This document shows positions 25,651 through 26,724 of a stretch of 64,000 bases of DNA, one piece after another. The number at the start of each line of letters is the position of its first letter. The first letter of the stretch is position 1. The notes under the pieces were generated by a model. It was not told the origin of the DNA. It searched no databases and worked only from the letters and a program-made list of their open reading frames with translations. A program made the translations under genes and the position numbers. Source of the DNA: Betaproteobacteria bacterium (GTDB taxonomy: Bacteria > Pseudomonadota > Gammaproteobacteria > Burkholderiales > Casimicrobiaceae); the NCBI GenBank assembly GCA_013298145.1, contig JAAFJO010000009.1, forward strand, positions 13,783 to 77,782, read 5' to 3'.

Positions 25651-26724
25651 CTACTGCGTTTGTACCTCTTCAGCCGATACGGCATAAACCCCATCGAGCC
25701 AGGCGACCACTTCCGCAGCGGCTGGATGTTCGAATGCAGCGTACTTCGCGCGTAGCGCCGCGCGCCGCGCGCCAAGGCGGAGCAGGCCGGCGTCCTGAAA
25801 TGCCAGCAAATCTTCGCGTAGCGCGAGTGCAAGGGACGAGCCGACAATCTTGTGCGCGGCCGACTCGAAAGCAGATGCGTAGTCGTAGCGATCACCTTTT
25901 GCGTAGAGCTCGACGAGACTCAATGCCGGGATCAAGCTGAGCGTGGATTGCAGCGCGGGGTTGATCATGTGCGCAGCGATGAGGGAGGCGTTAGCAGCGT
26001 CGCGCCCGGTGAACGCCCGAAGATGAAGCTGGCTTGACATCCGAGGACCGTCGTTCACGGGATAGTTATCCCACAACGTCGGCGCTCGGCACAGTTGCTC
26101 TGAAATGGTTTCAAGATGTGATCGGCTGATCTGTCGTGAGCACACCTCCGGGCCAGTCCAGAACACTTCAATTGCAGGATCAAGCGCGGCGCCAAGCGTT
26201 TCCAGATAGCGATGAGGCCGCGCGCCGAATACGCGGTCAAGCACGATATCGCTGCTGTAGTAGCTCGGACAGACTACGAACTTCGCGCTCGGATGCGCGT
26301 GCGTTGCCTCGTCCACGATTTGAAGTTGAACCGACGCGAGATCCTCGCCGATGCCCTCCATATCGTCGAAGAGAATCGCAATACGCGCAACACCCAGGTT
26401 CGCGAGCCGCGTGATCTGCGCTCGAAACATCGCAAGGCGAGCCTTTGTGAGCGCGTCTTGCAATCCGTACGGGCTGATGCCCACACCAAATTCGACGCCG
26501 AGGCCGTTGCATTCGCGCCCAAATTCGGTGACGTTCGCCATCCATGCGTCGCTATAGGGCGAATCCCACTCGCGCCTGAGCGCACGATCGGCCTTCGGCG
26601 CGTAGAGGTATCGCGAAAAGCCGGCGACTGCGACGCGCTGCAAAACAAATCGTCGCTCGTCCCAAGACCAGGACGGGCCGAAGAAGCCTTCCACGATGCC
26701 GAGCGGTGGCGTCACGCTGTTCAC
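25651..26724 (-). CDS. GH84-like beta-N-acetylglucosaminidase (O-GlcNAcase/NagJ catalytic domain only), no signal peptide
   Basis: 357 aa with GTG start. GIVEGFFGPSWSWDER...YLYAPKADRALRREW...ILFDDM carries the adjacent Asp-Asp pair (codons at 26362-26367) characteristic of GH84 catalytic centres. It is the first gene of the operon. Confidence 0.72.
   Translation of the reverse strand: MNSVTPPLGIVEGFFGPSWSWDERRFVLQRVAVAGFSRYLYAPKADRALRREWDSPYSDAWMANVTEFGRECNGLGVEFGVGISPYGLQDALTKARLAMFRAQITRLANLGVARIAILFDDMEGIGEDLASVQLQIVDEATHAHPSAKFVVCPSYYSSDIVLDRVFGARPHRYLETLGAALDPAIEVFWTGPEVCSRQISRSHLETISEQLCRAPTLWDNYPVNDGPRMSSQLHLRAFTGRDAANASLIAAHMINPALQSTLSLIPALSLVELYAKGDRYDYASAFESAAHKIVGSSLALALREDLLAFQDAGLLRLGARRAALRAKYAAFEHPAAAEVVAWLDGVYAVSAEEVQTQ

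Follow-up and report, generated by a model that had tools for sequence, protein, structure and literature searches.

What does an enzyme of glycoside hydrolase family 84 (GH84) do at the head of an operon for cell-wall sugars, and could it carry out the reaction of NagZ, the hexosaminidase of family 3 (GH3)? The question is raised by a gene in a stretch of 64,000 nucleotides from a genome of the Casimicrobiaceae (contig JAAFJO010000009.1; the whole stretch is called the window below), in which a sequence-only reading had noticed a small cytoplasmic GH84-like protein and had proposed that it cleaves an imported disaccharide composed of GlcNAc (N-acetylglucosamine) joined to MurNAc (N-acetylmuramic acid). 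Our analysis supports this proposal: the protein is probably a cytoplasmic exo-beta-N-acetylglucosaminidase whose likeliest substrate is GlcNAc-beta-1,4-MurNAc or its 1,6-anhydro form, so that it would perform the NagZ reaction on another fold. The support comes from the near-complete mutual exclusion of GH84 and NagZ in a sample of 201 genomes, from a hole in the recycling pathway of Marinobacter, and from clusters in which GH84 recurs together with MurQ, NamZ, and AnmK. The gene and its active-site codons are:

25651..26724, minus strand: gene for a GH84 beta-N-acetylglucosaminidase, predicted to be cytoplasmic and single-domain (open reading frame and its translation, PF07555, structure model)
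26362..26367, minus strand: codons of the catalytic pair Asp120-Asp121 in the motif ILFDDM (aligned to the Asp-Asp motif in OgOGA and TtOGA; no variation among 40 family members)

Reading frame, fold, and active site

The gene encodes 357 amino acids from a GTG at 26724, or 354 from the GTG three codons further in (26715) that is used in public gene calls. As had been read from the sequence, the product opens on the N-terminal strand of the GH84 domain: GIVEGFFGPSWSW makes up residues 9-21, and the first barrel strand, GIVEGFFG, starts at residue 9. Since the open frame comprises just 368 codons in total and this strand begins so early, an N-terminal signal peptide cannot fit, which bears out the cytoplasmic location originally assigned to the protein. 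The profile PF07555 (NAGidase/GH84) is matched at 183.3 bits (E=8.5e-54; profile positions 2-291 of 295; cut-off 25), which places the protein inside GH84, and it was the sole domain found in a Pfam scan. NCBIfam holds no specific model, its only match being the 732-amino-acid GlcNAcase equivalog NF041654, at 95 bits, where the cut-off is 1000. The earlier description of a minimal enzyme without accessory domains thus holds at the level of Pfam domains, but the protein is not a bare barrel, since residues ~264-357 form a conserved helical extension.

The closest solved relatives in a phmmer search are the O-GlcNAcase (OGA) homologues OgOGA (E=1.5e-36) and TtOGA (E=1.8e-34), ahead of human OGA, CpNagJ, and BtGH84, and 38 sequences of GH84 in the PDB match at E<=0.001. 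D120/D121, the Asp-Asp pair that had been singled out as catalytic, lines up with its catalytic counterpart in OgOGA and with D119/N120 in the crystal of TtOGA D120N; the roles of the catalytic residues of GH84 have been described (PMC4683255). Across 40 aligned family members, this pair is invariant, as are K44, Y155/Y156, the block W218-D-N-Y-P-V-N-D225, and N255. The Lys, the Tyr, the W-D-N...N-D block, and the Asn make up the GlcNAc-binding set looked for in a GH84 enzyme. An AlphaFold2 (AF2) model built on an alignment of 40 family members reached a predicted local distance difference test (pLDDT) of 93.5 and a predicted template-modeling score (pTM) of 0.92, and shows a barrel followed by a short helical tail. 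The top 50 matches of this model in a Foldseek search of the PDB are all GH84, and it superposes on the core of human OGA (5uhp_A) with a root-mean-square deviation of 2.9 A over 298 columns and a template-modeling (TM) score, by target, of 0.84. Taken together, alignment and model indicate that the gene most likely encodes a bona fide GH84 exo-beta-N-acetylglucosaminidase, with predicted substrate-assisted catalysis by Asp120/Asp121.

Two further features of the family alignment deserve mention. Its C terminus carries a strongly conserved ...E-x-VQTQ (40 sequences; window 25651-25680), and the last seven residues of the window protein have a mean pLDDT of only ~60 in the AF2 model. A tail that is conserved yet unstructured suggests a contact beyond the monomer model, for example with a partner subunit or with the active-site cleft. 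In addition, C72 and C195 are invariant in the 40 members and are replaced by residues other than cysteine in the aligned OgOGA; C152, H203, and H252 are listed alongside them in the same alignment.

GH84 and NagZ across genomes

Full-length relatives of about 355 amino acids (45-54% identity) occur in over 587 species-level genomes and make up over 4000 protein clusters, and this clade spans Sphingomonadales, Caulobacterales, Marinobacter, Halomonadaceae, Burkholderiales, and Gemmatimonadota. Its members go by the public names "hyaluronoglucosaminidase," "beta-N-acetylglucosaminidase domain-containing protein," and "protein O-GlcNAcase," or are called hypothetical. We searched for GH84 and for NagZ in an identical draw of 201 genomes from the order containing Marinobacter, each at least 90% complete, and obtained the following distribution:

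GH84 only: 65 genomes
NagZ only: 109 genomes
Both: 1 genome
Neither: 26 genomes

The two enzymes thus almost exclude each other (Fisher p 4e-30), a value that is uncorrected for kinship and overstates the significance, since related genomes are not independent. The pattern is sharpest in Marinobacter itself, where 70 of 71 genomes carry GH84, in every case as one copy, and NagZ exceeds its cut-off in none of the 71. Five Marinobacter genomes that come as one large contig encode AnmK (5/5) and AmpG (5/5, one of them split), and searches of the same five genomes for GH3 and GH20 found neither. The presence of AmpG and AnmK without GH3 or GH20 leaves a pathway hole that GH84 would fill. In many marine bacteria, NagZ appears to have been fully displaced by relatives of the window enzyme. 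The genes that flank GH84 in Marinobacter are unrelated (TRAP transporter, SIMPL, ChaN, SulP). In one NagZ-bearing genome of the same order (G290, C52:11495-11671), we observed a 56-residue fragment of GH84 (44.8 bits), which may be left over from an exchange of one enzyme for the other.

With NagZ the window protein shares a cytoplasmic location, a place in the pathway of AmpG and AnmK/MurQ, and phyletic complementarity, the last uncorrected for kinship. Tested for GH3 sequence and fold (NagZ, NF003740), it gave no GH3 match; it would therefore work like NagZ at most, without being a member of that family.

The operon and its control region

Profile searches confirm that GH84 is the first gene of a MurQ/NagA operon with an AmpG-like importer, as had been noted from the sequence. 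GH84 and the eight minus-strand genes behind it form a nine-gene operon, in which the genes after GH84 are joined by 4-nucleotide overlaps or short gaps throughout. In the order of transcription, the features around GH84 are:

26803..26820, minus strand: putative NagQ-type operator with the direct repeats TGGTATT-AAAG-TGGTACT, ~80 nucleotides upstream of the GH84 start (pattern match)
24833..25606, minus strand: NagQ-like GntR/HutC-type regulator, 44 nucleotides past the GH84 stop (GntR and UTRA domains)
23700..24836, minus strand: NagA, GlcNAc-6-phosphate deacetylase (TIGR00221, 252 bits, over the cut-off)
22657..23703, minus strand: NagB-II-type glucosamine-6-phosphate deaminase of the SIS type (NF046059, E=1.4e-77, under the cut-off; SIS domains)
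21748..22650, minus strand: MurQ, MurNAc-6-phosphate etherase (NF003915, 354 bits, over the cut-off)
20456..21751, minus strand: AmpG-like permease of the major facilitator superfamily, a divergent paralogue (TIGR00901, 173 bits, under the cut-off of 350)
19302..20459, minus strand: NagX-like polytopic membrane protein, predicted glucosamine N-acetyltransferase family (NF046061, E=7.5e-43, under the cut-off)
17587..19341, minus strand, likely start ATG 19305: GHL10 (DigH/YddW-family) glycosidase lipoprotein (PF02638, 220 bits; lipobox LLGFLGS|C)
16646..17590, minus strand: BadF/BcrAD-type sugar kinase, NagK/MurK-like, the operon's last gene (PF01869; weak match to NagK_SO3507)
16611..16633, minus strand: terminator-like hairpin directly past the last gene (pattern scan; such hairpins are no more numerous in the region than expected by chance, and only the position of this one is suggestive)
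27177..28637, plus strand: divergent sodium:solute symporter (SSF) that shares the control region with the NagQ box (PF00474)

A pattern scan found no terminator-like hairpin in the gap between GH84 and the regulator gene. Upstream of GH84, the pattern of the NagQ-type box has this single match in the 64-kb window, against 0.05 expected, and the box is kept in two congeners of the source genome (G022 and G010). TGGTATT direct repeats are the motif that NagQ is reported to bind (PMC4494728). With a HutC-type GntR regulator and such repeats upstream, the operon falls into the NagQ regulon type, the box being its putative operator. A scan for a sigma-70 promoter around the box found none.

As for the DigH-like lipoprotein, the GHL10 member DigH of Escherichia coli is a hydrolase specific for denuded glycan strands (PMC12288456). 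On the other side of the control region, the symporter is a candidate for the uptake of MurNAc, GlcNAc, or the disaccharide. SSF genes adjoin GH84 in the source genus, in Sphingopyxis (L016:2125-3687), and in Hyphococcus (L022:8357-9979). Beside the symporter (window 28842-32806) lie genes for a TonB-dependent receptor, a PnuC-family transporter, an AAA_28 (NadR-kinase-like) protein, and a VTT-domain protein. The name "NagX" is in use for two different things: in Shewanella, Xanthomonas, and NCBIfam it denotes a membrane acetyltransferase-like protein, and in a 2026 study of Stenotrophomonas maltophilia a periplasmic GH20 hexosaminidase (PMC13436218).

It is at this locus that a role as a true protein O-GlcNAcase, clearing O-GlcNAc from cytoplasmic proteins in partnership with a transferase (OGT)-like protein, has to be weighed. 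OgOGA and TtOGA, the nearest solved relatives, hydrolyze O-GlcNAc peptides in vitro, and the source genome encodes a 519-amino-acid OGT-like protein on another contig (C1:88474-90033; L085:1363-2922, minus strand), unlinked to GH84, with weak tetratricopeptide repeat matches under the Pfam cut-offs and a C-terminal half that resembles GT41 (PF13844, 48 bits). However, no OGT gene lies in the locus, where GH84 heads an operon of amino-sugar catabolism downstream of a NagQ-type box, and the helical part at the C terminus falls short of that in OgOGA and TtOGA by ~90 residues. The alternative is weakened further by a search for GT41 OGT in 41 Marinobacter genomes, which found it in none of them, even though GH84 belongs to the core genes of Marinobacter. 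We consider an O-GlcNAcase role highly improbable, in line with the sequence-only reading, which had found no hint of it in the context.

Neighbors of GH84 in other lineages

In Sphingopyxis, the gene order around GH84 is SSF-MurQ-GntR-NagX-(FAD-linked oxidase)-NagB-NagA-GH84, followed by a BadF kinase and AnmK; in Hyphococcus, NagA-MurQ-GntR-Dld is followed by NamZ and then by BadF kinase-SSF-GH84. The GH84 proteins of the source genus, Sphingopyxis, and Hyphococcus fall into three separate clades of the family tree, and in each of these lineages the gene sits in a MurQ/NagA cluster. Two of these clusters contain candidate D-lactate dehydrogenases, namely, the FAD-linked oxidase of Sphingopyxis (L016:6395-7858, minus strand) and the Dld-type protein of Hyphococcus (L022:2758-4461, plus strand), which fits a removal of the D-lactate freed by MurQ.

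A neighbor conserved throughout the family was ruled out by all-against-all clustering of 80 related loci and a Pfam tally of their 133 flanking genes, in which the only recurring theme was NagA (3), BadF kinase (3), and SSF (2). This variability, with 116 Pfam families among the 133 genes and a heparinase II/III-like neighbor at one locus, might be taken to mean that GH84 acts on some other cytoplasmic GlcNAc conjugate (a glycolipid, a by-product of nucleotide sugars, or a fragment of a surface polysaccharide) and that its place in the operon reflects mere GlcNAc salvage. Yet no recurring partner implies such a substrate, the only coherent themes being NagA, BadF kinase, SSF, MurQ, NamZ, and AnmK, and we regard this explanation as quite improbable.

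A closer competitor is a general cytoplasmic hydrolase of GlcNAc glycosides within the NagQ regulon, which would act on chitobiose, chito-oligosaccharides, or some other beta-GlcNAc glycoside that is imported, instead of on the MurNAc disaccharide. The NagQ-type operator and the set of NagA, NagB-II, and NagX are typical of GlcNAc/chitin regulons, a TonB-dependent receptor heads the operon in the congener G010, just 15 of 48 GH84-bearing genomes have MurQ over its cut-off, and two loci (L038 and L061) show GH84 by NagA/NagB/NagX with no MurQ in the available DNA. Against this stand the operon's own MurQ, AmpG-like permease, and DigH-like enzyme, the NamZ and AnmK genes that adjoin GH84 in other lineages, and the source genome, in which searches for GH18 chitinase and GH20 found neither. 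This reading would also leave the exclusion between GH84 and NagZ unexplained. A search of the source genome for NamZ was negative as well. All in all, we consider a general GlcNAc-glycosidase rather unlikely and favor cleavage of the GlcNAc-MurNAc disaccharide.

The operon in congeners of the source genome

GH84 is present in 6 of 34 genomes of the genus, and its context is the identical operon wherever the contig is long enough: all nine genes are found in G022 and G010, and the first six in G014, where the contig ends. The operon proteins of these congeners are 52-92% identical to those of the window. In G010 (L095), GH84 is the least conserved, with 54% identity, compared to 62-83% for the remaining eight of the operon and 77% for the symporter, and the TonB-dependent receptor gene stands ahead of GH84.

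MurQ is more widespread (28 of 34 genomes), and clusters without GH84 reveal what the operon shares with its relatives. Six GH84-less congeners that we examined carry NagA-NagB-II-MurQ-NagX-GHL10-kinase, without GH84, the GntR gene, or the permease at that place; in three of the six, one or two of the six cluster genes were not found. A seventh, G015, has GHL10-AmpG-like-MurQ with NagB-II adjoining. In GH84-less G007 (L126, 14649-18028), the cluster runs on into genes for an Amidase_2/peptidoglycan-binding protein and for one with a beta-lactamase fold; LdcA lies downstream on the other strand, and Ddl lies upstream. The presence of Amidase_2/peptidoglycan-binding protein, LdcA, and Ddl beside the core cluster in GH84-less congeners marks it as a cell-wall cluster. 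Also upstream in G007, and divergently transcribed, is a gene for a "Gate"-domain membrane protein.

Covariation of GH84 with the AmpG-like permease within the genus was weakened as a line of evidence: the permease occurs in 28 of the 34 genomes, including GH84-less ones, and only its position inside the operon tracks GH84. The five GH84 sequences of the genus that entered the family tree are monophyletic. With the permease this widespread, and standing alone among unrelated genes in G007, the GH84-type architecture was probably created by one rearrangement in one sub-lineage.

Points against a NagZ-like role

Several observations weigh against the NagZ-like role. The first comes from the source genome itself, whose assembly (4.13 Mb, 99.3% complete) encodes a canonical NagZ (NF003740, 400 bits), a canonical AmpG (534 bits, contig C12), and AnmK, each at a locus separate from the operon. 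GH84 is thus not needed to close the pathway in this genome, and its substrate there could differ from that of NagZ. The same result qualifies the phrase "where NagZ would be expected" of the sequence-only reading, which does not imply that this genome lacks NagZ. GH84 as a stand-in for a missing NagZ in the source genome is ruled out by the presence of all three genes. Here, the enzyme is instead an addition to NagZ, not a replacement, and belongs to a cell-wall-sugar catabolic operon that we infer to be inducible.

The same coexistence is seen more widely, with NagZ present in 38 of 48 other GH84-bearing genomes; the ten without NagZ include all seven Marinobacter and Allohahella. The low MurQ count given above (15 of 48) likewise speaks against the role and rules out a strict tie between GH84 and MurQ, and about 75 of the 80 related loci show no amino-sugar gene beside GH84. 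Two of the positive signals may also reflect fewer independent occurrences than their counts suggest: the exclusion between GH84 and NagZ may rest on few evolutionary events, since kinship was not controlled for, and within the genus, GH84, the GntR gene, and the placement of the AmpG-like permease inside the operon probably appeared in a single event. Finally, the bond cut by DigH and its GHL10 relatives may be that of a muramidase or of a glucosaminidase, either one (PMC12288456).

Proposed role and implications

Weighing both sides, we retain the cleavage of GlcNAc-MurNAc as the probable function, and for the source organism we infer the following substrate, sequence of steps, and mode of regulation. 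The exported DigH-like GHL10 lipoprotein would cut peptide-free glycan strands, and the AmpG-like permease, perhaps together with the neighboring symporter, would take the fragments in. GH84 would then free GlcNAc from the imported disaccharide, the BadF-type kinase would phosphorylate the freed sugars, and MurQ, NagA, and NagB-II would carry them to fructose-6-phosphate. Binding of the HutC-type repressor to the NagQ-type operator would render the whole operon inducible.

It is tempting to extend this scheme to the family. In this broader proposal, the ~355-amino-acid GH84 clade would be a general, hitherto unrecognized NagZ analogue in the recycling and catabolism of muropeptides across much of the Proteobacteria and Gemmatimonadota and the sole such enzyme in Marinobacter and about one-third of its order; the bacterial "O-GlcNAcase homologues" would natively be cell-wall recyclers; and where NagZ is kept, GH84 would have been recruited together with an AmpG paralogue and a DigH-like hydrolase for the inducible use of peptide-free glycan. 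We give this extension an even chance of being correct. A literature search found no paper that ties GH84 to peptidoglycan recycling.

Bacterial intracellular GH84 enzymes have served as structural models of human O-GlcNAcase for 15 years. Their native role is given as unknown in PMC4683255, and a NagZ-type function, if true, would supply one. It would also close the pathway hole of Marinobacter-like bacteria, which possess AmpG and AnmK without GH3 or GH20, and would represent a clean non-orthologous displacement between two mechanistically different hexosaminidase families. In that case, cell-wall recycling in the two bacterial groups would respond in opposite ways to NagZ-selective and OGA-selective inhibitors. 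The window operon itself offers a testable model of growth on denuded peptidoglycan glycan, with the DigH-like lipoprotein as the entry enzyme.

Comparison with known systems

Like the window protein, OgOGA of Oceanicola granulosus (PDB 2XSA, 2XSB, 7KHS) and TtOGA of Thermobaculum terrenum (5DIY) are intracellular and lack N-terminal accessory modules, and all three share the (beta/alpha)8 barrel, the Asp-Asp pair, and the GlcNAc-binding residues (Foldseek TM score, by query, 0.75-0.80). They differ in their C-terminal parts: OgOGA (447 amino acids) and TtOGA (463-474 amino acids) possess a full helical bundle, whereas the window clade, at ~355 amino acids, has a shorter tail that ends in ...VQTQ. 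Both enzymes have been used as O-GlcNAcase models on glycopeptides (PMC4683255), and a literature search found no report linking either of them to a MurQ/AmpG operon.

GH3 enzymes employ an enzyme nucleophile, whereas GH84 enzymes rely on substrate-assisted catalysis by the 2-acetamido group. NagZ and the window GH84 thus share the proposed reaction, the compartment, and the place between AmpG and AnmK/MurQ but are unrelated in fold and mechanism, and the source genome contains both genes. The closest precedent for a non-GH3 enzyme that shares the role of NagZ is the GH20 hexosaminidase Smlt4027 ("NagX") of S. maltophilia, which overlaps with NagZ in muropeptide processing (PMC13436218). Unlike the window enzyme, it is periplasmic, has a signal peptide, and is accessory to NagZ, and apart from the name it has no relation to the operon's NagX-like membrane protein.

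At the level of gene organization, two described systems come close. NagQ-controlled GlcNAc clusters of the Xanthomonas/Shewanella type share with the window operon the HutC-type regulator, the TGGTATT repeats, NagA, NagB-II, and NagX. The MurNAc-catabolic MurQ/MurK/AmpG operons of Tannerella and clostridia share with it MurQ, a BadF-type kinase, and an AmpG-type permease. Neither system has been reported with a GH84 enzyme or a GHL10/DigH-like lipoprotein, and the window operon joins both modules in nine genes.

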